DNA from: Nitrospinaceae bacterium
GTDB taxonomy: Bacteria > Nitrospinota > Nitrospinia > Nitrospinales > Nitrospinaceae
Assembly: GCA_965223665.1 (NCBI GenBank)
Contig: OZ245011.1
Location: 3,232,001-3,296,000, forward strand
Direction: 5' to 3'
DNA: 64,000 nt
The notes under the pieces are model-generated. The model did no database searches. It worked only from the letters and a program-made list of their open reading frames with translations, and was not told the origin of the DNA. Both the position numbers and the translations under genes were made by a program. Each line of letters opens with the position of its first letter. Positions within the stretch are counted from its first letter, which is position 1. Below, piece after piece: positions 39,397-58,888 of this stretch.

Positions 39397-40335
39397 ATGA
39401 GTGAAAGAAAAAATATTGAGTCCATGTCCTTGGCAGAACTAAGGCAATATGCGAAGGACCATAAGATTTCCGGGGTTTCTAAACTAAAAAAATCCGATTT
39501 ATTGGAATTTCTCAAACAGGAAACATTACAAGTTTCAAAAAGTAGAAAAACAACTTTGGCTAAAAAATACATTGGAAAAAAATCAAAATCTGTTGAAAAA
39601 AAACCTGTAAAGCGGAAAAAATTTGGAAGCCGGAAACTAAAAGCCCGATCTGTTGATAGTAAGAAAAAGTCGGATAAAGACAGATTCGAAAATATTCCTA
39701 ACCAAAAAGAAACTATAAAAATATCACATCCGCTTCAAGTAGAAGAGGATTTAGCTGCAAAGTTTATTATTGGAGATCCGCAAATTCATGATGAAACTTA
39801 TTCCGAAGAACCCGGTGAATTTCCGCTTCGCTATGGAGATCATAAATTATTTGCATTTCCAAGGGACCCGGAATGGGTTTTTATATACTGGGATTTGCAG
39901 GAGGGACATATTCAAAAGGGGTTAAACCAGTTAAATTGTAGCAGGGAAGAAGTGCGATGGGTATTAAGAGTGTTACCTTTGGAAGCAGAGGATCACAATT
40001 CATCTTTTTTTGATGCGAATATTCACCCTGACGCCCAAAGTTGGTATTTGCAAATAGCACCTCCCGGAAAAAGTTTCTATATAGAATTAGGTTTAATTAA
40101 CTCTGAAGGTTCTTTTTATTCTTTGATTAGATCCAATAAATTTACCTTGCCTCCTAATAGTCCGAGTGAAAATATAAATAAAGATTGGATGTTGAACCCA
40201 GAGCAACACAAGCAACATTATTCTAACTGGAGTTTTCCAAAAGGATCGACTCTTCAAAATAAGAATTCGCCAGAACCAAAAACCGGATATGGTCTCAGTA
40301 GTTATCAATTTTCATCTTCTTTATCCAATAAATAA
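39397..40335 (+). CDS. DUF4912-domain protein with N-terminal Rho-N-like domain and Lys-rich linker
   Basis: 'LAELRQYAKDHKISGVSKLKKSDLL' (Rho-N-like) and 'LRYGDHKLFAFPRDPEWVFIYWDL...YIELG...RSN...P' (DUF4912); upstream of GH57. Confidence 0.8.
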   Translation: MSERKNIESMSLAELRQYAKDHKISGVSKLKKSDLLEFLKQETLQVSKSRKTTLAKKYIGKKSKSVEKKPVKRKKFGSRKLKARSVDSKKKSDKDRFENIPNQKETIKISHPLQVEEDLAAKFIIGDPQIHDETYSEEPGEFPLRYGDHKLFAFPRDPEWVFIYWDLQEGHIQKGLNQLNCSREEVRWVLRVLPLEAEDHNSSFFDANIHPDAQSWYLQIAPPGKSFYIELGLINSEGSFYSLIRSNKFTLPPNSPSENINKDWMLNPEQHKQHYSNWSFPKGSTLQNKNSPEPKTGYGLSSYQFSSSLSNK

Positions 40336-40355
40336 GTAGAAAGTAGACCAACCTT

Positions 40356-41936
40356 ATGTCAAAAGGATATCTTTGTTTAGTCTTGCACGCTCATCTTCCA
40401 TTTGTACGCCACCCAGAATACGAGGAATTTCTTGAGGAAGATTGGTTATATCAGGCTATTACTGAAACCTATATTCCCTTAATTAGAGTGTTTGGGAATT
40501 TAATTAAGGATGACATACCTTTTAAAATTACTATGTCTTTAAGTCCAACGCTTCTTTCAATGTTGGGAGACCCCTTACTTCAATCCAGATATATTCGGTT
40601 TTTAGATAGATCCACAGAATTAGCCGAAAAAGAAATTAATAGAACAAAGAAAGATCCAAATTTTCATTCTGTAGCCTGGATGTATAAAGAAAAACTTCAG
40701 GAAGCAAAGGATATATTTGAAAATCGGTATACGGAAAATTTAGTTGAAGCTTTTAAAAACTTTCAAGATCAGGGGAATTTGGAAATAATTACCTGTGGTG
40801 CCACCCATGGATACTTACCTTTAATGCATTTATATCCTGGTGCCATGCGGGCACAGATACAAGTGGCGGTCCAAACCCATGAAAAATTTTTAGGAAGAAA
40901 GCCAAAAGGTATTTGGCTTCCAGAATGTGCTTATGAGCCCGGGATTGAAAAATTTTTAAAGGAAGCGGGAATTGACTTTTTCTTTTTGGATACACATGGA
41001 ATTTTACATGCGAACCCAAGGCCAAAACATGGTGTTTATGCTCCTTTATATTGTGAAAATGGAGTGGCGGCATTTGGAAGGGATATTGAGTCTTCCAAAC
41101 AGGTATGGAGTTCAAAAGAGGGCTATCCAGGAGATTTTAGTTATCGAGATTTTTATCGGGATATTGGTTTTGATTTGGAATATGAATATATTCGTCCTTA
41201 TATAGCAACCACCGGTGATCGTAAAATGACAGGTTTTAAGTATCACAGGATTACTAATGAAGGTAATTATAAAGAAGTTTATTGCCAAAAAATGGCCTTG
41301 GAAAAAGCTGCGGATCATGCAGGTAATTTCATGTTCAATCGTGAACGGCAAATAGAGCATTTAAATTATGTTATGGGTCAACCCCCCATAGTAGTGGCAC
41401 CCTATGATGCTGAATTATTCGGGCATTGGTGGTACGAGGGGCCAGACTGGTTGAATTATTTAATTCGACGGGCTGTATATGATCAAAACGTATTCGAGCT
41501 TATAACCCCATCAGGCTATTTGGAAAAACATACCCAAAATCAGGTATCGACCCCGACCATTTCAAGTTGGGGGTTCAAAGGATTTCATGAGCATTGGTTG
41601 AGTCACAAGAATGATTGGATATACCGTCATTTGCATAAGGCTACTGAACGGATGATCGAATTATCAAGGCAATATTCGGATGCCCATGGCTTAGTAGAGC
41701 GCACCCTAAATCAGGCAGCCAGAGAATTATTATTAGCACAAAGTAGCGATTGGGCGTTTATAATGTTTGCAGAAACTATGGTAGAATATGCAATCAGAAG
41801 GACCAAGGGGCACCTACATCAATTTAACAGGTTGTATGATGCAATTAAAGCGGGGTCCATAGATGAGCGTTTTTTGATTTCTCTTGAGGAAAAAAATAAT
41901 ATTTTTCCTGATATAAACTTTCGAGTATTTAGTTAA
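40356..41936 (+). CDS. GH57 1,4-alpha-glucan branching enzyme (DUF1957)
   Basis: HAHLPFV, THGYLP, WLPECAY (nucleophile Glu), PYDAELFGHWW (acid/base Asp), LAQSSDW. Confidence 0.93.
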   Translation: MSKGYLCLVLHAHLPFVRHPEYEEFLEEDWLYQAITETYIPLIRVFGNLIKDDIPFKITMSLSPTLLSMLGDPLLQSRYIRFLDRSTELAEKEINRTKKDPNFHSVAWMYKEKLQEAKDIFENRYTENLVEAFKNFQDQGNLEIITCGATHGYLPLMHLYPGAMRAQIQVAVQTHEKFLGRKPKGIWLPECAYEPGIEKFLKEAGIDFFFLDTHGILHANPRPKHGVYAPLYCENGVAAFGRDIESSKQVWSSKEGYPGDFSYRDFYRDIGFDLEYEYIRPYIATTGDRKMTGFKYHRITNEGNYKEVYCQKMALEKAADHAGNFMFNRERQIEHLNYVMGQPPIVVAPYDAELFGHWWYEGPDWLNYLIRRAVYDQNVFELITPSGYLEKHTQNQVSTPTISSWGFKGFHEHWLSHKNDWIYRHLHKATERMIELSRQYSDAHGLVERTLNQAARELLLAQSSDWAFIMFAETMVEYAIRRTKGHLHQFNRLYDAIKAGSIDERFLISLEEKNNIFPDINFRVFS

Positions 41937-47277: not shown

Positions 47278-48831
47278 ATGCAAGGCTTGCCTACTACCCC
47301 AATGGGGGAGATCCCACACCAGCTCCCTCTAAAAATTTTACTGGTTGAAAGTAACGATGAAGATGCAAACTTACTGAAGCTGCTCTTAGGTCGTTTACAG
47401 AACCCCCCTTTTAGTTTGGAAGTAGTTTCCACACTAAAGGAAGGAATTAATTGTTTAGAAACTGGATCCATTGATTTAGTCATTTTAAACTTATTCCTTA
47501 AAGACAGCCAAGGGTTGGGAACTTTTAATGTTATTAATCAAAAGTTTCCCCATGTTGCTCTTGTGGTTTTTAGCACTGACCATAATGAAGATCTTGCCAT
47601 AAAAGTGATTCAAAAAGGTGCTCATGATTATTTGGTAAAAGAAAGTTTGGACTTAACCCATATCGTCCGCTCCATGCGTATTGCCTTTGATAATAAACAA
47701 ACGAAAATGGCATTACGAGCCCAGGAAGATCAAATAAAATCTGTTTTGAACCATTCCTTTGATACAATAGTCGTCTTTGATTTTAATGGGATTATCTTTT
47801 CAATAAATCCTTCGGGCGAAAAAACGTTTGGTTATAAAGCAGAAGAGGTCAGAGGTAAGCATATTAGCGAACTTTTACCAAATCCAATTTCCCAAGGGAA
47901 TGGGTCAGCTACTTCACAAAAAACACCATTTCCAAATATAAACTTTGCTATAAGTGACCAATTGATTGAATTTGTTGGCAAACATAAAGATGGGAACCGA
48001 ATTTCATTAGAAGTTTCTTTTAATGAAATTTTTCAGAATGATTGTAAATTAATAATGGGCATTTTTAGAGATATTACGGATCGTAAATTAGCGCAAGAAA
48101 AGTTAATCAAAGCTCAAAACGAATTAATACGTGCAGGAAAATTAGCTATATTAGGTGAAATGTCGGCAGAAATTAGCCATGAATTAAACCAACCTCTAGA
48201 GGCTATTCAAGCATACATAGACAATATTAATTTTTTGTTGGAACACAAGAGATATGAAGATGTGCAAAATAATTTTGAAGCGGTTTGTGATCTGACACAA
48301 CGAGCTGGAAATATTATTGATAATATAAAAAATAGATTATGTGATCAGTCATATGTTCCAGAATCTATTTCTGTCCAGGAAACATTGGAATCAACTCTTT
48401 CTTTATTATCTTTAGGAAATCGATTAAAAGATGTAGTGGTGGAAAAAAAATTCCCAAAAGAAATGTTGATTACCCAAGCGAATTCCCTAAAATTAGAACA
48501 AGCATTTTTAAACTTAATTACAAATGCCTTAGATGCAATGGATGGGGAAAAAAATAAAGTATTAACCCTATCGTTAGAAAGCAATAAAAATGAAATTTTA
48601 TTAAGCTTTAAAGATTCTGGCAAGGGTTTAAGTGAAAATGAACTTCCACATGTTTTTGAACCGTTTTTTACAACGAAAAACATCAAGAAAGGGTTGGGCT
48701 TGGGGCTTTCAATTTCTTCAAATATAATCAAAGAATTTGATGGTAGTATTGAAGTAAATAACAAATCCAATCGAGGGGCAGAGTTTATTGTCAGGCTACC
48801 TCTCCTATCTGAGCCTGTGAAAACTATTTAA
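47278..48831 (+). CDS. Soluble sensor histidine kinase: pseudo-receiver + PAS + HisKA + HATPase (DctB/NtrB-like core)
   Basis: REC-like N-terminus with Asn at the phosphoacceptor position (VILNL), PAS, LGEMSAEISHELNQPL, NALDA, DSGKG, FFTTK, GLGLGL. No TM segment seen. Confidence 0.9.
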   Translation: MQGLPTTPMGEIPHQLPLKILLVESNDEDANLLKLLLGRLQNPPFSLEVVSTLKEGINCLETGSIDLVILNLFLKDSQGLGTFNVINQKFPHVALVVFSTDHNEDLAIKVIQKGAHDYLVKESLDLTHIVRSMRIAFDNKQTKMALRAQEDQIKSVLNHSFDTIVVFDFNGIIFSINPSGEKTFGYKAEEVRGKHISELLPNPISQGNGSATSQKTPFPNINFAISDQLIEFVGKHKDGNRISLEVSFNEIFQNDCKLIMGIFRDITDRKLAQEKLIKAQNELIRAGKLAILGEMSAEISHELNQPLEAIQAYIDNINFLLEHKRYEDVQNNFEAVCDLTQRAGNIIDNIKNRLCDQSYVPESISVQETLESTLSLLSLGNRLKDVVVEKKFPKEMLITQANSLKLEQAFLNLITNALDAMDGEKNKVLTLSLESNKNEILLSFKDSGKGLSENELPHVFEPFFTTKNIKKGLGLGLSISSNIIKEFDGSIEVNNKSNRGAEFIVRLPLLSEPVKTI

Positions 48832-50198
48832 TGAGCGCGCAAGGCAAAGTCATTTTTGTAGATGACGAGAAGCATATCCGTCACTCCAGAAAACAGACCT
48901 TAGAATTAGTGGGTTATGAGGTTTCCTGTTTCTCCAACCCTAAAGACGCTCTTGCCATGATCTCCCCTAGGTGGGCCGGTATCATTGTGACTGATATAAA
49001 AATGCCTGATATGGATGGGTTTGAGTTTTTGCAACAGGTCATAATGATTGATAAAGAAATCCCAGTTGTGGTAATGACAGGGCATGGTGATGTCCCAATG
49101 GCAGTCAAAGCGATGCGTTTGGGAGCCTATGATTTCATTGAAAAACCCTGTTCTTCTGAACATTTTTTAGAAGCCATCAACCGAGCCATCGAAAAAAGAA
49201 AATTAATTTTAGAAAATCGTATCCTTCGCTCAGAAATTGAATCTCAAAAATCACCAGGAGTAAAAATTATCGGTAAGTCACCTTCCATTGAACAACTTAA
49301 ACAAGTCATAAGGAATGTTGCAGATTCCAATGTCGATGTATTAATTCAAGGTGAAACCGGTACAGGTAAAGAGTTGATTGCACGGTATTTGCATGACCAA
49401 AGCAAAAGGAATAAAAAAAGCTTTGTTCCATTAAACTGTGGAGGGTTTCCGGAAACTATTATTGAAAGTGAACTTTTTGGTCACGAAGCTGGAGCTTTTA
49501 CAGGTGCAGAAGCTCGGCGCATTGGCAAGTTTGAGCATGCGGATGGTGGAACTATTTTTTTGGATGAAATTGAAAGCATGCCCCTTAACTTACAAGTAAA
49601 ATTGTTAAGAGTCATTCAAGAAAGAGTTATCGAAAGATTAGGATCCAATGAAATTATACCTGTAGACATACGTGTAGTGGCGGCTACTAAGGTGGATCTT
49701 AAAGAGGCCAGTCAAAAAAATGAGTTTCGAGAAGATTTATTTTATAGACTCAATGTTGTTAAGGTAGACCTGCCCGCTTTAAGAGAGCGGAGAGAAGATA
49801 TTCCTCTTCTGTTCCAGTTTTTTGTCGCCGAAGCTTGTGACAGATATAATTATGAAGTTCCGATCATATCCCGAGATACCATTCAAAATTTAATGCTCAG
49901 GTCTTGGGAAGGGAATGTTCGTGAATTAAAAAATGAGGCTGAAAGGTTTGTTTTGGGGATGTCATTGAAGACAATTAACGAAGGAGTGAATTTACCAAAA
50001 TTTACTTTAAGTCCGCAGCAGGAAAAAACTTTGAGTTTGGCTACACAAGTGGATATGTTTGAAAAAACTGCAATTGAACAAGAATTAATTCGGCAAAAAG
50101 GTGATATTAAAAAAACCTACACTGCTTTAGGTATTCCAAGACAAACTTTATACGATAAAATGAATAAGTATGGCCTTAAACGTAAAGAATTTATTTAG
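48831..50198 (+). CDS. Sigma-54-dependent response regulator (DctD/NtrC family)
   Basis: REC (VDDE...TDIKMP...KP), GETGTGKE, intact GAFTGA, DEIE, Fis-type HTH. TAATG coupling to the kinase. Confidence 0.93.
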   Translation: MSAQGKVIFVDDEKHIRHSRKQTLELVGYEVSCFSNPKDALAMISPRWAGIIVTDIKMPDMDGFEFLQQVIMIDKEIPVVVMTGHGDVPMAVKAMRLGAYDFIEKPCSSEHFLEAINRAIEKRKLILENRILRSEIESQKSPGVKIIGKSPSIEQLKQVIRNVADSNVDVLIQGETGTGKELIARYLHDQSKRNKKSFVPLNCGGFPETIIESELFGHEAGAFTGAEARRIGKFEHADGGTIFLDEIESMPLNLQVKLLRVIQERVIERLGSNEIIPVDIRVVAATKVDLKEASQKNEFREDLFYRLNVVKVDLPALRERREDIPLLFQFFVAEACDRYNYEVPIISRDTIQNLMLRSWEGNVRELKNEAERFVLGMSLKTINEGVNLPKFTLSPQQEKTLSLATQVDMFEKTAIEQELIRQKGDIKKTYTALGIPRQTLYDKMNKYGLKRKEFI

Positions 50199-50357: not shown

Positions 50358-50374
50358 TTGGCACTTCTTTTGCT
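50358..50374 (+). promoter_or_regulatory. Sigma-54 (-24/-12) promoter of cheA-cheW
   Basis: TTGGCACTTCTTTTGCT matches TGGCAC-N5-TTGC; GG at 50360-61, GC at 50372-73. Confidence 0.85.
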
Positions 50375-50479: not shown

Positions 50480-53224
50480 ATGGACGATATGTGGCCGATT
50501 ATCAATGAATTTTTAACGGAAAGCTACGAGAATCTTGATCAGTTAGATCAAGACTTAGTAGAGTTAGAGGCCCATCCGGATGAACAAAGCTTATTAGCTA
50601 GTATTTTCAGAACTATTCATACTATAAAAGGAACTTGCGGGTTCTTGGGATTTACAAAATTAGAATCTGTTGCCCATGTCGGAGAAAATCTTTTAAGTAA
50701 ACTTCGAGATGGTGAATTGAGTATGACCCCTGCAATTGCAAGCGCCCTTCTTTCAATGGTTGACGCAATTCGACAAGTTTTATCCTGCATTGAAAAAGAC
50801 CAAAATGAAGGAGATGTGGATTATTCTGCCTTGGTAGAAACTTTAACTCGACTACAAGCTGGAGAAGATGTTGAGCTTGATAAGGTATCTACGCCTCAAG
50901 CGCCAACAGATAAATCCGACTCATCCCCCGAAGAATCAAAAAGTGAAGAACTGGGAGTGGCGGTTTCAGCCGAAGAAAAAACAGAAAACGCTTCATCATC
51001 TACTTCAGATTCCTCTGGAAAATCTCCCTTAGAACAATTGGGTGGACATGTTTTTATCGAATTAACAGTAGATATGCTCTATGACAAATTAATTAAAGAT
51101 GAAAGAGTAAATCAATTTTTTGAAGGATTGGATTTAGTTGTCCTTCGCCGGAATATGCGGGAATTTCTTGTTGGTTCACTTAAAGAACCTTCTGAAGATC
51201 TAAGCTCAGAATTGAAGGATTCTCATCAAACCTTGGCGGAAAAAGGGTTTGCCGATTCCCATTTTGAAGTTGTAATGGAAAACTTGGGAACTACCCTCCA
51301 GGCATTAAATATGAAAGAAGAGTTTGCTAGCTTGGTTACAGCAAAAGTCCTTTCAGTTAAGGATAAACTTCTAAATAAAGGAGATTCAAAAAGTACTTCT
51401 TCAGAACAACCCAATTCGGCAATTGTTTCTAGTGAAAGTGTGCAATCTGGCCAAGAATCCAAGCCAACGCAAGAAATTCAAAAAGTATCTGAAAAAAATG
51501 AAAATCCTTCCTCTTCCAGTGAAAGTAAACCTTCCAATCCGGGAACTCCTCCAAGTCGATCTTCTGAGAGTATACGTGTCGATGTAGAAATGTTGGATTC
51601 CTTAATGAATTTAGTTGGAGAACTTGTTTTAGCACGAAATCAAATAATGCAGTTTACAACAACCGAAAAAGATGCGACCTTTATTGCCACAACTCAACAT
51701 CTTAATCAATTGACAACAGAGTTGCAGGAAGGGGTTATGAAAACTCGGATGCAACCCATTGGGAACATTTGGAATAAGTTTCCTAGGGTAGTAAGAGATT
51801 TATCCCATTCTGTAAATAAACAGGTCCGTTTGGAAATGGAAGGAAAAGAGACGGAGCTTGATAAAACACTAATTGAAGCGATTAAGGATCCTCTAACACA
51901 TATTGTACGTAATTCAGTGGATCACGGAATTGAATCACCTGAGGCCCGGCAATCAAAGGGAAAAAATCCGGAGGGAGTATTAAAGCTTCGTGCGTATCAT
52001 GAGGGTGGTCAGGTTAATATTGACATCATTGATGATGGGGGTGGAATTGATCCTGAAAAGATCCGTCAAAAAGCGCTATCCAAAAATTTAATCACTCAAC
52101 AGCAATCTACAAAAATGAGTGACCGGGAAGTCGTCAATTTGATTTTTAACCCCGGTTTTTCTACCGCCGAAAAAGTTTCAAATATTTCGGGTCGCGGCGT
52201 AGGAATGGATGTTGTCAAAACTAATATAGAGAAGATTGGTGGAACAGTTGATATTCAAACAAAAGTTAATGAAGGTACTTCCTTAAAAGTTAAAATCCCT
52301 TTAACTTTGGCAATTATTCCAGCTTTGGTGGTGAAATGCGGAGGTTGGCGATATGCCATTCCACAAGTAAGTTTAGTTGAATTAGTAAGATTAGAAGCTG
52401 ACCAGGCGACCCACGGTATTGAGGAAATCCAGGGAGCTCCTGTTTACCGGCTTAGAGGAAATTTACTTCCGTTGGTTTATCTTCATCAAGAATTAGATGT
52501 TAAACAACAATTAGAGGAAGCAGGGGTGGTTAATATTGTGGTCCTCCAAGCAGACAAGCGGCAGTTTGGCCTCGTAGTAGATGGAATTCTTGATACTGAA
52601 GAAATTGTTGTTAAACCTTTGGGTAAGCAATTAAAAGGAATTACTGCATTTGCCGGAGCAACAATAATGGGAGATGGAAAAGTAGCTTTAATTCTAGATG
52701 TGATGGGTTTAGCTCAAAAAGCAAGGGTTCTTTCAGAAGCTTCTCACGGACAATCTGCATCCGACGCAACAGAAAAATCAACATCGAGAAATGGAGAATT
52801 ACAAACTCTATTGATTTTCTCTTTGGGACAAGAAGGACGTATGGCGGTCCCGCTATCCATGGTGGCCCGTTTAGAAGAATTCAAACGAGGTACCATAGAG
52901 CATTCGGGTGATCAAGATGTGGTCCAATATCGCGGTGAGATAATGCCATTAATTTATTTATCCGATGTTTTTGGAGGAATGCGACCTGAGACCGAAGAAA
53001 TGCAAGTTATAGTTTACTCTGCACAAGGTCGCAGCGTAGGGGTTGTAGTAGGAGAAATAATTGATATTGTCGAAGAGATGGTTACAGTTAAGCAGGGTTC
53101 TGGTGGGCAAGGTGTATTAGGATCGGCCGTTGTCCATGGTAAGGTTACAGATTTATTGGATGTCGAAGGGGTAATACGTTCTGCGGATCCAAGTTTTTAC
53201 GATGAATCATTGATGGTGGGTTAA
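50480..53224 (+). CDS. cheA: Chemotaxis histidine kinase CheA with inserted truncated-hemoglobin domain and extra C-terminal CheW domain
   Basis: HPT (IFRTIHTIKG), globin-like aa ~182-300, P3 (SIRVDV...LMNLVGELV), P4 (RNSVDHGIE, SGRGVGMDVV), P5 and a second CheW-like domain; SD AAGGAG. Confidence 0.95.
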   Translation: MDDMWPIINEFLTESYENLDQLDQDLVELEAHPDEQSLLASIFRTIHTIKGTCGFLGFTKLESVAHVGENLLSKLRDGELSMTPAIASALLSMVDAIRQVLSCIEKDQNEGDVDYSALVETLTRLQAGEDVELDKVSTPQAPTDKSDSSPEESKSEELGVAVSAEEKTENASSSTSDSSGKSPLEQLGGHVFIELTVDMLYDKLIKDERVNQFFEGLDLVVLRRNMREFLVGSLKEPSEDLSSELKDSHQTLAEKGFADSHFEVVMENLGTTLQALNMKEEFASLVTAKVLSVKDKLLNKGDSKSTSSEQPNSAIVSSESVQSGQESKPTQEIQKVSEKNENPSSSSESKPSNPGTPPSRSSESIRVDVEMLDSLMNLVGELVLARNQIMQFTTTEKDATFIATTQHLNQLTTELQEGVMKTRMQPIGNIWNKFPRVVRDLSHSVNKQVRLEMEGKETELDKTLIEAIKDPLTHIVRNSVDHGIESPEARQSKGKNPEGVLKLRAYHEGGQVNIDIIDDGGGIDPEKIRQKALSKNLITQQQSTKMSDREVVNLIFNPGFSTAEKVSNISGRGVGMDVVKTNIEKIGGTVDIQTKVNEGTSLKVKIPLTLAIIPALVVKCGGWRYAIPQVSLVELVRLEADQATHGIEEIQGAPVYRLRGNLLPLVYLHQELDVKQQLEEAGVVNIVVLQADKRQFGLVVDGILDTEEIVVKPLGKQLKGITAFAGATIMGDGKVALILDVMGLAQKARVLSEASHGQSASDATEKSTSRNGELQTLLIFSLGQEGRMAVPLSMVARLEEFKRGTIEHSGDQDVVQYRGEIMPLIYLSDVFGGMRPETEEMQVIVYSAQGRSVGVVVGEIIDIVEEMVTVKQGSGGQGVLGSAVVHGKVTDLLDVEGVIRSADPSFYDESLMVG

Positions 53225-53741: not shown

Positions 53742-56700
53742 TTAAAGGGCGGTTCTTAAAAAAGTATCCATTGAATCCCTATAAAGTGACCTAACCTTTT
53801 TGGTCACTTTTAAATATTCTTCCATAAATAAATTTCCTTGTTCTTCAAAATCCTTTCCGGGGAAATTTAACATTCTGCCCAGTACTCCCAAAGTTTCTTT
53901 ATCTTGGGGAAGATAATTTGAGTACCGCGAATTTAGGAGTCTTAACGCGCACTCTAAATTACGAAGAAAATGATAGTATTTTCCGAGTTCTTCTCCCTGT
54001 TCGTAAGGTAAAATTCCATAGGAGGACAAATTCTGAATTAAATGGAATACATTTGTTTCCCGAAGCTTAGGGTAACGATGTCCATGCATCATTTGTAGAA
54101 TTTGTACCATGAATTCGATATCTGCCAGACCCCCAAAACCTAATTTTACATTTTTCCCCTTCTTTATCTCCTGACCAATTTCTTTTTCCATTCTTTCACG
54201 TAATCTTGCAATTTCAATTAAGGAATCGTATTTAAATTTTTTGGGGTAACTAAATCCCTGTGCAATTTCAATAAACTTTTTTCCCACCTCTGGATTACCT
54301 GCCACAAAGCGTGCACGGGTCATCGCCTGTTGTTCCCAAATTTGACCTCGATGGTTAAAGTAATCTTTATAACCATTCAAAGAAATTACTAAAGCCCCAC
54401 GACTTCCTTCAGGTCTAAGATCAGTATCGATTTTGTAAGCAAGGCCTTCAGAAGTCATTTCTGTGGAAAGTTGATATACTTTTTGTGCGAGAGACGAGTA
54501 CCAACTCACTAAATCTCCTTCAATGTATTTTTTAAAATTTTCATTTTCCTCATAAACAAATACAATATCTAAATCCGAACCAAAATTTAATTCCTTTCCC
54601 CCTAGTTTTCCTAATCCAATGATTGCAAATTGATGAGAAATCGGATTCAAAGAATTTTGAAATGCCTTATGTGTTAAAGCTAAATTTAAAACATTTTTTA
54701 AATAAATATCTGCCAAGTTCGATAAATCTGCCAAAGTCTCCGGCAGTCCTGTTTCACCTATTAAATATTTGATTCCAATTCGCAATTCTTCTCCGTTTTT
54801 AAACTTTCGGAGAAAAACATTTTTATTATTTTCTCCATCTTGTTTTTCTAAAGCATCGTTAAGATCTTTGGTCATTTCCTCCGGAGTTTTAAATCGGTAA
54901 ATTGACCCTGGATTAGACAATACATCAATTAAATAGGGCCGTTTTACCAGAAGTTGAGAAAGGACTTCACTTCCACCAAATAAAATTAAAAGTAATTCTA
55001 AAAACTTTTCATTTTCAGTAAATATAGCCAAAAAGGCATCTCGGGATTGACTTGCTTCCACAAACTTGACTAAATTTTCTATTGCAGAATTTGGATTGGG
55101 TACTTTTTTACAAAATTCTAATAGTGTTGGAAGCATCGAATAGAAGTCTCGAATACTACGTTCACTCGGATGAGAAAACTTGGGGCCATCGCGCAAATTT
55201 TTCAAGAAAGTAAAAGTTCTTTCTGGGTCTTTATAGTTAAAATCATTTAGCAACTCTGGACTGAATCTGGATTCTAGTTTTTTTTGGGCATCCCACTTTT
55301 GAAAAGTATTGTCTGCCGCTTTCTGATCTTTATCTTCTTTAAATAAATTAGCAAACATTTTAGCGACATATTCTGTATGTCTTTCAAATTCTGAGTTCAA
55401 AGCTAATACTAAGGCTTCATTGGTAGTACCTTTTAACCCCATTTTCCTTGCCAACACGGCTAAGTCGGTTTCATTTTTTGGTAGATGGTATGTTTGTAAA
55501 CCAAATGATATTTGAACTCGATTTTCTAAATTTCTCAGGAAAATATAAGCTTCTTTTAATTTTAAATATTCTTCTTCATTTAGAAAATCACGATTTCTTA
55601 ATTTTTTTAATACGTTCAAAGTATTTGCTTCTCGAAGTTGAATGTCCTGACCTCCAAATAAAAGCTGATATGCTTGGACAATGAATTCGACTTCACGGAT
55701 TCCTCCTGGCCCGAGTTTAATATGTCCTTTTTCTAACTTTTTCTTTTTTAAATCCAGGTCTACCTTTTTTTTAAGATTTTTAATTTCTTCAATGGCATTG
55801 AAATCCAAGCTTTTTCGATAAATGAAAGGTCGGATCATTGAAAAAAACTCTTCTCCTAAAGTTTCACTACCTGCTGAAACCCGAGCTTTAATTAAAGCTT
55901 GCCGTTCCCAGGTTCTTCCCCAGGATTGATAATAAATTTCGCAACTTGCCAGTGAGTTTACAATTTCCCCACTTTTTCCTTCCGGTCGAAGGTCGAGATC
56001 GACCCGAAAGACGTTTCCTTCTGAGGTGATCTCATTTATGGTTTGTGTGACTAACCTTGCAAACTTAGTATGATATTCGTGGTTGCTGATAGATGTGGTA
56101 GATGTATTATGGGGATCTTGAGACTGAGTTTCTCCCATACTGGAACCGTATATATAAATGAGATCAACATCTGAGCTGTAATTAAGTTCTTTTCCGCCAA
56201 GTTTTCCCATTGATAAAACTGTAAATTCAGATTCTAAAATTTTTCCATTTGGGTCTTTGAAAATGGGAGTTCCATATTTCTTTTTTAAAACTTTTTCCGA
56301 GTAATCGCAGGCAATTTGTAAACAGACATCTGCTAAATCAGATAAATTCTCCACATTTTCTTTCAGGGAGACTAAGCCCATTAAGTCACGCAAACCTATC
56401 CTTATATATTCACGTTTTTTAAACTTTCTTAAAAGCGATGGGATTTGTTCGTTTGAATAATTGAGGCCCGCCATTTCGTAAAACTCACGATAAAGCACGT
56501 TCTTGGTTTTAGAAACGGTTAGCATTCCTTCTTGGCTAAGCCAGTCAATATAAGAAGGATTACTTAAGAGAGTGTCTGTAAGGACTTGGCTTCCAGAGAA
56601 TAGTGTTATTAATGTTTTTAAAAATTCAGGAGAAAGAGCTAAAAGAGAATATAAATGTTCTTTATCTAATATTTTTTCCGTTAATCGGTCAAAATTATTT

Positions 56701-56921
56701 AAGGCGGTATCCGCTTTGTAAGAATTTTTTAGACAGTTAAAAAGTGAAGGAAAAAATGTTGGGTATAAATCTCTGAAATTTGCTTGGAGGGAGATGTTAG
56801 AAAAAATTTGCCAAGCTTTTTGAGGCTCGTCAAGATTTAGTTGGCGAAGAACATCATCAAATTGTTCTTCCCAAGGTGTTTTTTCAAAAATAAGATGAGG
56901 TAAGTCCGTAAGCTCAATCAT
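53742..56921 (-). CDS. glnE: Glutamine synthetase adenylyltransferase/deadenylylase
   Basis: Two nucleotidyltransferase domains: MGKLGGKELNYSSDVDL...DLRPEG and LGKLGGKELNFGSDLD...DLRPEG. Confidence 0.95.
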   Translation of the reverse strand: MIELTDLPHLIFEKTPWEEQFDDVLRQLNLDEPQKAWQIFSNISLQANFRDLYPTFFPSLFNCLKNSYKADTALNNFDRLTEKILDKEHLYSLLALSPEFLKTLITLFSGSQVLTDTLLSNPSYIDWLSQEGMLTVSKTKNVLYREFYEMAGLNYSNEQIPSLLRKFKKREYIRIGLRDLMGLVSLKENVENLSDLADVCLQIACDYSEKVLKKKYGTPIFKDPNGKILESEFTVLSMGKLGGKELNYSSDVDLIYIYGSSMGETQSQDPHNTSTTSISNHEYHTKFARLVTQTINEITSEGNVFRVDLDLRPEGKSGEIVNSLASCEIYYQSWGRTWERQALIKARVSAGSETLGEEFFSMIRPFIYRKSLDFNAIEEIKNLKKKVDLDLKKKKLEKGHIKLGPGGIREVEFIVQAYQLLFGGQDIQLREANTLNVLKKLRNRDFLNEEEYLKLKEAYIFLRNLENRVQISFGLQTYHLPKNETDLAVLARKMGLKGTTNEALVLALNSEFERHTEYVAKMFANLFKEDKDQKAADNTFQKWDAQKKLESRFSPELLNDFNYKDPERTFTFLKNLRDGPKFSHPSERSIRDFYSMLPTLLEFCKKVPNPNSAIENLVKFVEASQSRDAFLAIFTENEKFLELLLILFGGSEVLSQLLVKRPYLIDVLSNPGSIYRFKTPEEMTKDLNDALEKQDGENNKNVFLRKFKNGEELRIGIKYLIGETGLPETLADLSNLADIYLKNVLNLALTHKAFQNSLNPISHQFAIIGLGKLGGKELNFGSDLDIVFVYEENENFKKYIEGDLVSWYSSLAQKVYQLSTEMTSEGLAYKIDTDLRPEGSRGALVISLNGYKDYFNHRGQIWEQQAMTRARFVAGNPEVGKKFIEIAQGFSYPKKFKYDSLIEIARLRERMEKEIGQEIKKGKNVKLGFGGLADIEFMVQILQMMHGHRYPKLRETNVFHLIQNLSSYGILPYEQGEELGKYYHFLRNLECALRLLNSRYSNYLPQDKETLGVLGRMLNFPGKDFEEQGNLFMEEYLKVTKKVRSLYRDSMDTFLRTAL

Positions 56922-56956
56922 TGGTTTCCTAAAACTGAACCCCGGTAAAATAAATT

Positions 56957-56986
56957 ATAACCTCCCTGAATTTTCAGGGAGGTTAT
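56957..56986 (-). terminator. Strong hairpin between glnA and glnE
   Basis: ATAACCTCCCTGA-ATTT-TCAGGGAGGTTAT, a perfect 13-bp stem. The minus-strand U-tract is weak, so read-through into glnE is likely. Confidence 0.7.
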
Positions 56987-57025
56987 TTTATTATGAACAA
57001 AAGATAATTTTAACAAGAATTTGGA

Positions 57026-58438
57026 TTAAGCATCATAGTATAAGAAAAACTCATAAGGATGCGGTCGGAGACGAATTTCATCCAATTCAGTTTCCTGTTT
57101 ATAGGAAATCCATCTGTCCACAACATCTTGAGTAAAAACATCTCCTTTTAATAGAAACTCATGATCCTGTTCCAATGCACCCAAAGCTTCCTCGAGAGAA
57201 CCGGGCAACCGGGGAATGTTAGCAAGTTCTTCAGGTCCCAAAGCATAAATATCTTTATCCATTGGTTCGCCAGGATCAATTTTGTTTTCAATTCCATCTA
57301 AACCTGCCATTAACATTGCGGTAAAAGCTAAATATCCATTACTGGTCGGATCTGGAAATCGACATTCTAGTCGTTTGGCTTTTGGGCTTGGCGAATACAT
57401 TGGAATTCGAACCGCCGCACTTCTATTTCGACTACTATAAGCTAAGTTCACAGGAGCCTCAAAACCTGGAACTAATCGTTTGTAAGAGTTTGCTGTTGGA
57501 GCAACAAAAGCTGCTAAGGCCCTTGCATGTTTCAGTATTCCTCCAATGTAGTGCAATCCCATTTCACTAAAACCTGCATAACCATTCCCTGCAAATAATG
57601 GATTGCCATCCTTCCAGATACTTTGATGAACATGCATTCCGGATCCATTATCTCCATAGATTGGTTTCGGCATAAATGTAGCAGTTTTATTATGTTGTCT
57701 TGCTACATTTTTAACAATGTATTTATACCACATTAAATTATCACCACATTTTACTAGTGGAGAATAACGCATATCAATTTCACATTGACCGCCAGAAGCA
57801 ACTTCATGATGGTGACATTCCATATCGATGCCTACCTTTTGCATTAGCAAAGTCATTTCTGTTCGCATATCTGCCAGGCTATCACTTGGGGAGACAGGAA
57901 AGTATCCCTCTTTATACCTTGGTTTATAACCCAGGTTAGGGCCTTCATCACGACCTGTATTCCAGTTTCCTTCTTTAGAATCTACATAATACGCAGCCAT
58001 ATTGATATCGGATTCATATCTGACATCATCAAATACAAAAAATTCTGGTTCAGGACCAAAATAAGCAGTATCGCCCAGACCTGTTGACTTTAAATAAGCC
58101 TCAGCCTTTTGCGCAATATTCCTGGGGTCACGTGTATATTTTTCTTTTGTAATTGGGTCCACAATATTACAAATCATACTTAGAGTGGGGACTTGGAAAA
58201 ATGGATCCATGACAGCGGTTTCACCATCTGGGATAACAAGCATATCGCTGGCATTAATTGCCTGCCAACCCCGGATACTCGAACCATCAAAACCTAACCC
58301 CTCCTCGAACATATGTTCTACAAGTTCACTGATCGGCACTGCAAAGTGTTGCCAGCTTCCAATGAGGTCCATAAATTTAAGGTCCACCATTTCCGCATTA
58401 TTTTGTTTTGCAAAATCAATTACCTCTTTTGGTGTCAT
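57026..58438 (-). CDS. glnA: Glutamine synthetase type I
   Basis: [40 protein letters not shown], adenylylation loop MDKDIY. Confidence 0.98.
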
Positions 58439-58540
58439 TAGACCCTCTCCTCCTTCTTTTTAGTTTGACCGTTTATCAAAGTTATTTATATAAATTAATT
58501 TTCTAATTGAAGAAATGGGAAACTGAATAAGCATTTGCTT

Positions 58541-58888
<348 letters not shown>

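Follow-up and report, generated by a model that had tools for sequence, protein, structure and literature searches.

What does a truncated haemoglobin do inside a chemotaxis kinase, and might it allow the kinase to sense for itself? By the standard account, CheA is itself blind to signals and relies on receptors for all of its sensory input. The question is raised by cheA in a 64,000-nucleotide stretch of DNA from a Nitrospinaceae bacterium (GenBank assembly GCA_965223665.1, contig OZ245011.1, positions 3,232,001 to 3,296,000 of the forward strand; hereafter the window), the product of which carries a globin between its P1 and P3 domains. A sensor fold with its cofactor inside the kinase would mean a different wiring, and here it would be placed in the only CheA of the cell. 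The present analysis indicates that a truncated haemoglobin (trHb) cassette inside this sole CheA is a real and conserved architecture, apparently undescribed in the literature searched. The reading preferred here, which we hold at roughly even chances, is that the CheA globin is folded, probably binds haem and provides the chemoreceptor array with an input for gas or redox state.

Pfam domains for Hpt, H-kinase_dim, HATPase_c and CheW-like regions are all found in the 914-residue protein and place it in the CheA class; NCBIfam CheA models match it at E values of 1e-139 and 4e-127, yet under their equivalog cut-offs. His47 of P1, which lies in an HTIKG motif (codon at 50618-50620), is unchanged in 12 of 12 aligned orthologues. 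A P2 domain (PF07194), which not every CheA possesses, has no match at E <= 1 in the Pfam scan of the window CheA, and the globin fills the interval between P1 and P3. It is flanked on both sides by the Ser- and Glu-rich linkers that the original prediction had described, with 15 Ser and 12 Glu among the 82 residues before it and 17 Ser among the 57 after it. The 119 residues quoted in that prediction are the exact translation of positions 51023-51379 on the forward strand, corresponding to CheA residues 182-300.

Sequence, profile and predicted fold together identify CheA residues ~178-300 as a group I truncated haemoglobin, or 2/2 globin, as had been proposed. On the whole protein, the Bac_globin family (PF01152) matches residues 185-284 with 21.1 bits, which is marginal against the Pfam cut-off of 21, and on the isolated residues 174-307 it reaches 26.0 bits (E 1.1e-5). 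A phmmer search of the same segment against PDB sequences returns Synechococcus GlbN (2ksc) as its best match at E 1.3e-15, along with Synechocystis GlbN (1e-11), Chlamydomonas and Tetrahymena trHbs (1e-10 to 1e-9) and M. tuberculosis HbN (5e-8). Group I is favoured over group II, since the group I matches in PDB lie between 1e-15 and 1e-6 whereas the best group II match stands at 0.23. The AlphaFold2 model of the segment, built on a 43-row alignment, has a predicted local distance difference test (pLDDT) of 85.1 and a predicted template modelling score (pTM) of 0.79; its top Foldseek matches in PDB are all group I trHbs with template modelling (TM) scores of 0.72-0.87, which gives a predicted 2/2 fold. 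Because the PDB sequence matches and the predicted fold agree, the trHb assignment is firm despite the marginal Pfam score. The Protoglobin family of Pfam has no match in the window CheA.

The residues expected of a haem pocket are largely in place. Following GlbN numbering and a HMMER alignment to 2ksc, we take the pocket of the window globin to consist of Tyr201 (B10), Phe214 (CD1), Leu222 (E7), Asn225 (E10), Met226 (E11), Val265 (G8) and the proximal His249 (F8). Every residue named in the original prediction stands at its given position, namely LGG at 187-189, Tyr201, Phe214, Leu222, Met226, His249 and HF at 261-262, so that the proximal haem ligand is retained along with the residues at B10 and CD1. 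On the same mapping, Val rather than Trp at G8 agrees with group I and not with groups II and III. Across a 43-sequence globin alignment, His249 is the sole invariant column (43/43), and Gly188-Gly189, Tyr201, Phe214, Phe229 and His261 are each at least 90% conserved. The proximal His is strictly conserved, according to the accessible text of PMC4720485. Among nine aligned CheA-embedded globins, the invariant positions are the AB-loop Gly-Gly, Phe CD1, Leu E7, His F8 and the G-helix HF; at B10, six of the nine have Tyr and the others Phe. The E11 position varies more widely, with Met in the window and in its same-genus relative G001, Gln in G038 and G012, Glu in G014, G009 and G002, His in G040 and Leu in P0103. 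The globin of a further CheA, P0160, also has the proximal His and carries Met at both E10 and E11.

Not all features are kept. The available part of PMC4720485 describes two Gly-Gly motifs as conserved in groups N and O and a basic E10 residue as an aid to haem binding. The AB-loop motif (G188-G189) is present in the window globin, but the EF-loop Gly-Gly is replaced by Lys235-Glu236 in the window and G001, a loss that the original prediction had noticed for the window globin; the other seven of the nine CheA-embedded globins keep it. E10 is Asn in the window and His in G001. With Leu E7, Met E11 and Val G8, the distal pocket is unusually apolar, and Tyr B10 is its sole polar residue. Since hydrophobic E7, E11 and G8 residues correlate with low O2 affinity in clade N globins, again as far as the accessible text of PMC4720485 goes, reversible binding of lower affinity would fit this pocket and would be more in keeping with a sensor than with a scavenger. 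Taken as a whole, the retained residues make haem binding by the window globin likely. It is furthermore a matter of speculation, by analogy with EcDOS, whether Met E11 (window and P0160), Met E10 (P0160) or His E11 (G040) might serve as a displaceable sixth ligand.

A codon comparison between the window cheA and that of G001 (Nei-Gojobori method; 799 codons alignable up to the end of the locus) reveals how selection has acted on each part of the protein, expressed as the ratio of non-synonymous to synonymous change (dN/dS). P1 shows no non-synonymous change at all (dN/dS 0), P3-P4 stands at 0.010 and the first CheW-like region (P5) at 0.020. The globin, residues 182-300, falls close to these values at 0.035, with 38 synonymous and 8 non-synonymous differences over 119 codons; the E10 difference is one of these eight replacements. 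In contrast, the linkers on either side are fast-evolving, with dN/dS of 0.33 in linker 1 (residues 131-181) and 0.11 in linker 2 (residues 301-355). The globin is thus under strong purifying selection, like the catalytic domains, while its tethers are free to drift. Because the globin is as constrained as the catalytic domains and the linkers are not, a decaying spacer is disfavoured.

The fusion is, moreover, not limited to this bacterium: 12 Nitrospinota genomes share it, and it occurs again outside them. In a sample of 120 Nitrospinota genomes, 72 have a CheA P3 match and 52 have matches to a CheA-globin profile at E <= 1e-5. The complete order Hpt-Bac_globin-P3-P4-CheW-CheW is confirmed by Pfam in ten of them (G002, G009, G012, G014, G038, G040, G050, G066, G089 and G098), with Bac_globin scores of 23.5-56.6 bits, and the G001 fusion is deduced from a globin domain 89% identical to that of the window. 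Including the window, the fusion is therefore carried by 12 of the 72 CheA-bearing genomes, across two families and seven genera. Beyond this sample, at least three CheAs contain a globin, specifically P0103 (Hpt-globin-P3-P4, its end frameshifted), P0122 (with a weak globin between P1 and P3) and P0160 (Hpt-globin-P3-P4-CheW-REC). Word-indexed searches of long proteins gave two, two and two fusion matches, and the spread reported here is a lower bound. Public names miss the fusion: the G038 protein is called 'chemotaxis protein CheW' at NCBI and P0122 simply CheA in IMG, and the single public name that includes 'truncated hemoglobin YjbI' belongs to the IMG entry of P0075.

Whether these globins share one origin is addressed by a maximum-likelihood tree of 55 globin domains, which is poorly resolved, with 28 of 52 inner branches open. 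In the free tree, the globins from CheAs are not united in a single clade, and two pairs, the window with G001 and G040 with G050, sit on long branches. After removal of three long-branch rows (CheA_P0122, own_L001_3 and own_L002_4), a single clade of the 12 Nitrospinota CheA globins is not rejected by the approximately unbiased (AU) test (p-AU 0.755), and the tree constrained to contain it improves on the quick free tree by 15.2 log-likelihood units.

The position that the globin occupies is itself variable. The original prediction had placed it in the stead of P2; its location between P1 and P3 stands, but a direct swap does not, as Pfam P2 is absent from all 17 Nitrospinota CheAs scanned (thresholds E <= 1 for the window and 1e-3, 1e-4 and 0.01 for the others). 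Four relatives, G034, G023, G097 and G063 (loci L051, L052, L053 and L056), hold a second Hpt in this slot, and two, G003 and G015 (L054 and L055), have a low-complexity linker alone. The globin is better understood as one of several cassettes that a CheA without P2 can hold in a variable slot than as a P2 replacement. In genus g4, represented by four near-complete genomes, there was no P3 match, and with the full-length CheA as query only weak kinase-domain matches were returned, in G004, G011 and G006.

Related globins are also found on other array proteins. An exhaustive search of representative sequences returned 715 matches at E <= 1e-3, and the best 150 of these 715, which do not include the window's own cluster, were examined; the Pfam scan covered all 84 of the 150 with a length of at least 200 residues. 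Among the 20 long matches scanned first, two were CheAs with a globin, three were CheW-globin proteins and seven were globin fusions, N- or C-terminal, to methyl-accepting chemotaxis proteins (MCPs), the rest being one HisKA-HATPase-REC-globin, one globin-cytochrome c554, one globin-ankyrin and five with globin only. The other 64 held only Bac_globin and overlapping Protoglobin matches at E <= 1e-10, bar one ankyrin and one stray viral-family match, and most had several globin domains. MCPs with a C-terminal globin occur in five Nitrospinota genomes, G010 and G034 encode MCPsignal-globin proteins of ~240 residues, and in G014 a 1034-residue MCP with three to four tandem N-terminal trHbs lies directly upstream of the globin-bearing cheA (L017, 1068-4172). 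Judged by their sequences, the CheA, CheW and MCP fusions point to a broader 2/2-globin-coupled chemosensory family.

Some of these matches are of note in their own right. P0004-P0011 and other top matches are giant proteins with, at most, ~8-12 tandem group I trHbs (P0004 has 1882 residues), some with ankyrin repeats, and are probably multi-unit T1 globins of eukaryotes; their scores sum over the repeats, which places them above all bacterial matches. The HisKA-HATPase-REC-trHb protein P0118 bears the source name of the protist Aplanochytrium, and the trHb-cytochrome c554 fusion P0065 has 688 residues. In the genome of the window itself, a gene row elsewhere (L026; G000:C1:1668579-1672079, reverse strand) encodes a soluble PAS-MCP of 672 residues, a PilZ protein of 116 residues and a stand-alone Bac_globin of 140 residues (41.9 bits), with a second MCP ~4 kb away; the row might be the split equivalent of what relatives encode as MCP-globin fusions.

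The available data are compatible with a model in which the globin is an input module for O2, NO or haem-iron redox state at the chemoreceptor array. A haem-dependent role at the array is favoured because the haem ligand and pocket are conserved, the domain is strongly constrained and fusion to CheA, CheW and MCPs has occurred repeatedly. In this model, a change in haem ligation or redox state would alter the contacts of the tethered globin with the kinase core (P3-P4) or with P1, and the altered contacts would in turn bias CheA autophosphorylation, such that an internal aerotaxis or NO-taxis signal could be added to the signals of the eight MCPs of the genome. The original prediction had suggested that the kinase may sense without a receptor; with eight MCPs present, the globin would be at most an added input. 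Since the tethers are disordered, a tethered regulator is favoured over rigid helical allostery of the HemAT type. We infer haem binding, the choice of ligand and the coupling to kinase activity from sequence. A predicted complex of P1 and P3-P4 with the globin and haem scored 0.00, with a mark of 0.32, which speaks neither for nor against binding.

Several observations weigh against a sensory role. The window globin is the most divergent of its family, scoring 21-26 bits with Pfam where most relatives reach 43-57, and together with the G001 globin it sits on a branch of 1.38 changes per site in the 55-domain tree. The long disordered linkers offer no rigid allosteric path, unlike helical HemAT-type coupling, and the presence of such globins on three different array proteins is also in keeping with a function that requires localisation only, for instance that of an enzyme. 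Orthologous CheAs without an insert exist in G015 (of the Nitrospina-like genus g2, which it shares with four globin carriers) and in G003 (g3), and the globin is therefore dispensable for core kinase function; as the slot also takes a second Hpt, it may simply tolerate inserts. Lastly, the window globin is without the second Gly-Gly and without the basic E10 residue that the accessible text of PMC4720485 links to haem binding.

Three other explanations have to be considered in this light. The globin might be an enzyme or buffer that is merely tethered to the array, such as an NO dioxygenase, a peroxidase or an O2 buffer anchored via CheA, and in other organisms via CheW or MCPs, which shields or conditions the array and does not signal; we regard this as unlikely. 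Nitrite oxidisers meet NO and nitrite stress, and flexible tethers to three different array proteins fit a need for location only, but we know of no array component that requires such protection, the genome already holds three stand-alone Bac_globin genes, and one copy per CheA would provide little catalytic capacity. The nearest solved relatives of the domain are indeed stand-alone trHbN proteins, and NO dioxygenase activity is described for M. tuberculosis HbN in PMC3493545; against this, the Leu E7/Met E11 pocket is without the Gln E11 that partners Tyr B10 in the hydrogen-bond network of HbN, as described in the accessible text of PMC4720485. A ligand-independent docking or scaffold domain, whether haem is bound or not, which would use the P2 slot as a platform for CheY, CheB, an array protein or, in the dimer, itself, appears improbable to a similar degree. 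The role of P2 is to dock CheY and CheB, and the globin has the same position and, like P2, flexible linkers; additionally, the slot of relatives holds a second Hpt, another CheY-facing domain, and purifying selection would fit any conserved binding surface. The invariant residues, however, are those of the haem pocket (His F8, Phe CD1, Leu E7, GG and HF), with no evident surface patch. Globins on MCP C-termini and on CheW are, furthermore, hard to square with CheY docking, and to our knowledge there is no precedent for a 2/2 globin that binds a receiver domain.

A non-haem relic, in which haem was lost in the genus of the window and a folded spacer now sets the distance between P1 and P3, seems the least probable of the three, and we consider it very unlikely. 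It would account for the missing EF-loop Gly-Gly in the window and G001, for the missing basic E10 in the window and for the lowest Pfam scores and long branch of these two copies, and non-haem globin families such as RsbR and photoglobin exist (PMC8717448, in its available part). Yet His249, Tyr201 and Phe214 are kept, the dN/dS of the globin (0.035) is far under that of the true spacers that flank it, and the linker-only orthologues show that a spacer requires no folded domain.

A bolder proposal extends the sensory reading beyond this protein: 2/2 haemoglobins might constitute an unrecognised class of chemotaxis input, tethered via CheA, CheW and MCP C-termini and directly gating the kinase by O2, NO or haem redox state. 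This is possible, though tentative and held at distinctly less than an even chance. If it were true, the sole CheA would be its own gas sensor, possibly via a displaceable Met226 (E11) sixth ligand. Nitrospinota include the main marine nitrite oxidisers, which live along steep O2 and nitrite gradients; such cells would gain a receptor-independent means of holding position at oxic-anoxic interfaces.

The genomic context defines how far any such effect would reach. The genome (4.35 Mb, 98.6% complete) has a single H-kinase_dim match, which is the window cheA, together with 8 MCP signalling domains, one CheB, two CheR and seven Flagellin-N matches that indicate flagellation. As this flagellated cell, with its eight MCPs, has no other CheA, any globin effect would act on the whole chemotaxis output. 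An origin of the cassette by recent duplication of one of the three stand-alone globins of the genome was considered and rejected, as those genes score 30-75 bits against 128 for the CheA domain with a group I profile. The features of the locus are collected in the table.

Table 1 Features of cheA and its neighbourhood in the window (aa, amino acids; HMM, hidden Markov model; ORF, open reading frame)
Feature	Position	Strand	Remarks
REC-PAS-HisKA-HATPase hybrid kinase	47278..48831	+	upstream of the activator
NtrC-type sigma-54 activator (REC - AAA+ - HTH)	48831..50198	+	directly upstream of cheA; gene order repeated in G002
sigma-54-type promoter consensus TGGCAC-N5-TTGCT	50359..50374	+	106-121 nt before the cheA ATG
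cheA ORF, 914 aa	50480..53224	+	Hpt(P1) - linker - trHb - linker - P3 - P4 - two CheW-like (Pfam scan)
P1 / Hpt domain, aa 8-99	50501..50776	+	Pfam
linker 1, aa 100-181	50777..51022	+	S/E/D-rich from ~aa 130
group I truncated haemoglobin domain, aa 182-300	51023..51379	+	HMM envelope 178-300
proximal His249 codon	51224-51226	+	within the globin domain
linker 2, aa 301-361	51380..51562	+	S/P/Q/K-rich
P3 dimerisation domain (H-kinase_dim), aa 362-422	51563..51745	+	Pfam
P4 kinase domain (HATPase_c), aa 470-609	51887..52306	+	Pfam
two CheW-like (P5) domains	52322..53185 (52322-52720 and 52808-53185)	+	Pfam
cheW, 148 aa	53236..53682	+	next after cheA; sole stand-alone CheW gene of the genome

The perfect sigma-54 consensus upstream of cheA, TGGCACTTCTTTTGCT, is a single match in the 64 kb, where 0.01 would be expected. 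The exact consensus is confined to the genus of the window, being shared with G001; G003 has it with one mismatch, and the site was not found in the other relatives examined. The NtrC-type neighbour raised the prospect of a Che3-like transcriptional pathway, which was set aside since this is the only CheA of a flagellated genome. A row of glnE (an adenylyltransferase of 1059 residues), glnA and glnB (PII) at 53742-58879 on the reverse strand converges on cheA-cheW, and no evidence for a functional link between these three genes and the chemotaxis genes was found at the locus. Further upstream (39397-41936, forward strand) lie the genes for a Rho_N + DUF4912 protein and, after it, a GH57 branching enzyme. 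The G+C content of the window is 37%.

How, then, does this CheA relate to what is already known? A full-text literature search, with subscription papers outside its reach, returned no paper in which CheA, CheW or an MCP contains a truncated haemoglobin, and the original prediction, which knew of no characterised trHb-CheA fusion, agrees with this result. The accessible text of a 2020 review (PMC7475203) lists bacterial chimeric T globins only in T2/O and T3/P, with T1 chimeras being eukaryotic. In a 2026 review of aerotaxis (PMC13401364), neither 'truncated' nor 'trHb' occurs, and term searches of PMC8717448, PMC3770913 and PMC8788690 found nothing on trHb-chemotaxis fusions.

Comparison with known systems places the protein between two established kinds. 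HemAT and other globin-coupled sensors wire a haem globin into chemotaxis for aerotaxis, as the available part of PMC13401364 describes, a likeness that applies only if the sensory reading of the window globin holds. They carry an N-terminal 3/3 globin on a receptor or enzyme (PMC7475203, accessible text), whereas the window has an internal 2/2 globin in a kinase. With its 2/2 fold, internal position and lack of a Protoglobin match, the window CheA is not a member of that group, although it may work like one. Stand-alone trHbN/GlbN proteins (Synechococcus 2ksc, Synechocystis 1s69, M. tuberculosis HbN 1idr and Chlamydomonas THB1 6cii) have the same fold and family as the window globin and have His F8, Tyr B10, Phe CD1 and the AB-loop GG in common with it, and Leu at E7 agrees with M. 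tuberculosis HbN. Unlike them, the window globin lies within a 914-residue kinase on two disordered linkers, has lost the EF-loop GG, and carries Met instead of Gln at E11 and Asn instead of a basic residue or His at E10. Haem-PAS sensors (EcDOS with its Met95, FixL and Aer2) signal by haem ligand exchange and differ from globins in fold; for the CheA globins, hexacoordination of this kind is pure speculation from sequence.

On the side of the kinase, the P2 domain (PF07194) resembles the globin in its position between P1 and P3, its flexible linkers and its dispensability for the kinase core, while its fold is unrelated. Multi-Hpt kinases of the ChpA type and CheA-REC hybrids show by example that modular change can be accommodated between P1 and P3 and at the C-terminal end of CheA. 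Those variants add phosphotransfer modules, whereas the window CheA adds a module with a cofactor-type sensor fold. Taken together, the trHb-CheA extends two known kinds, the haem-globin sensors and the modular CheAs, with a putative sensing mechanism that is plausible.

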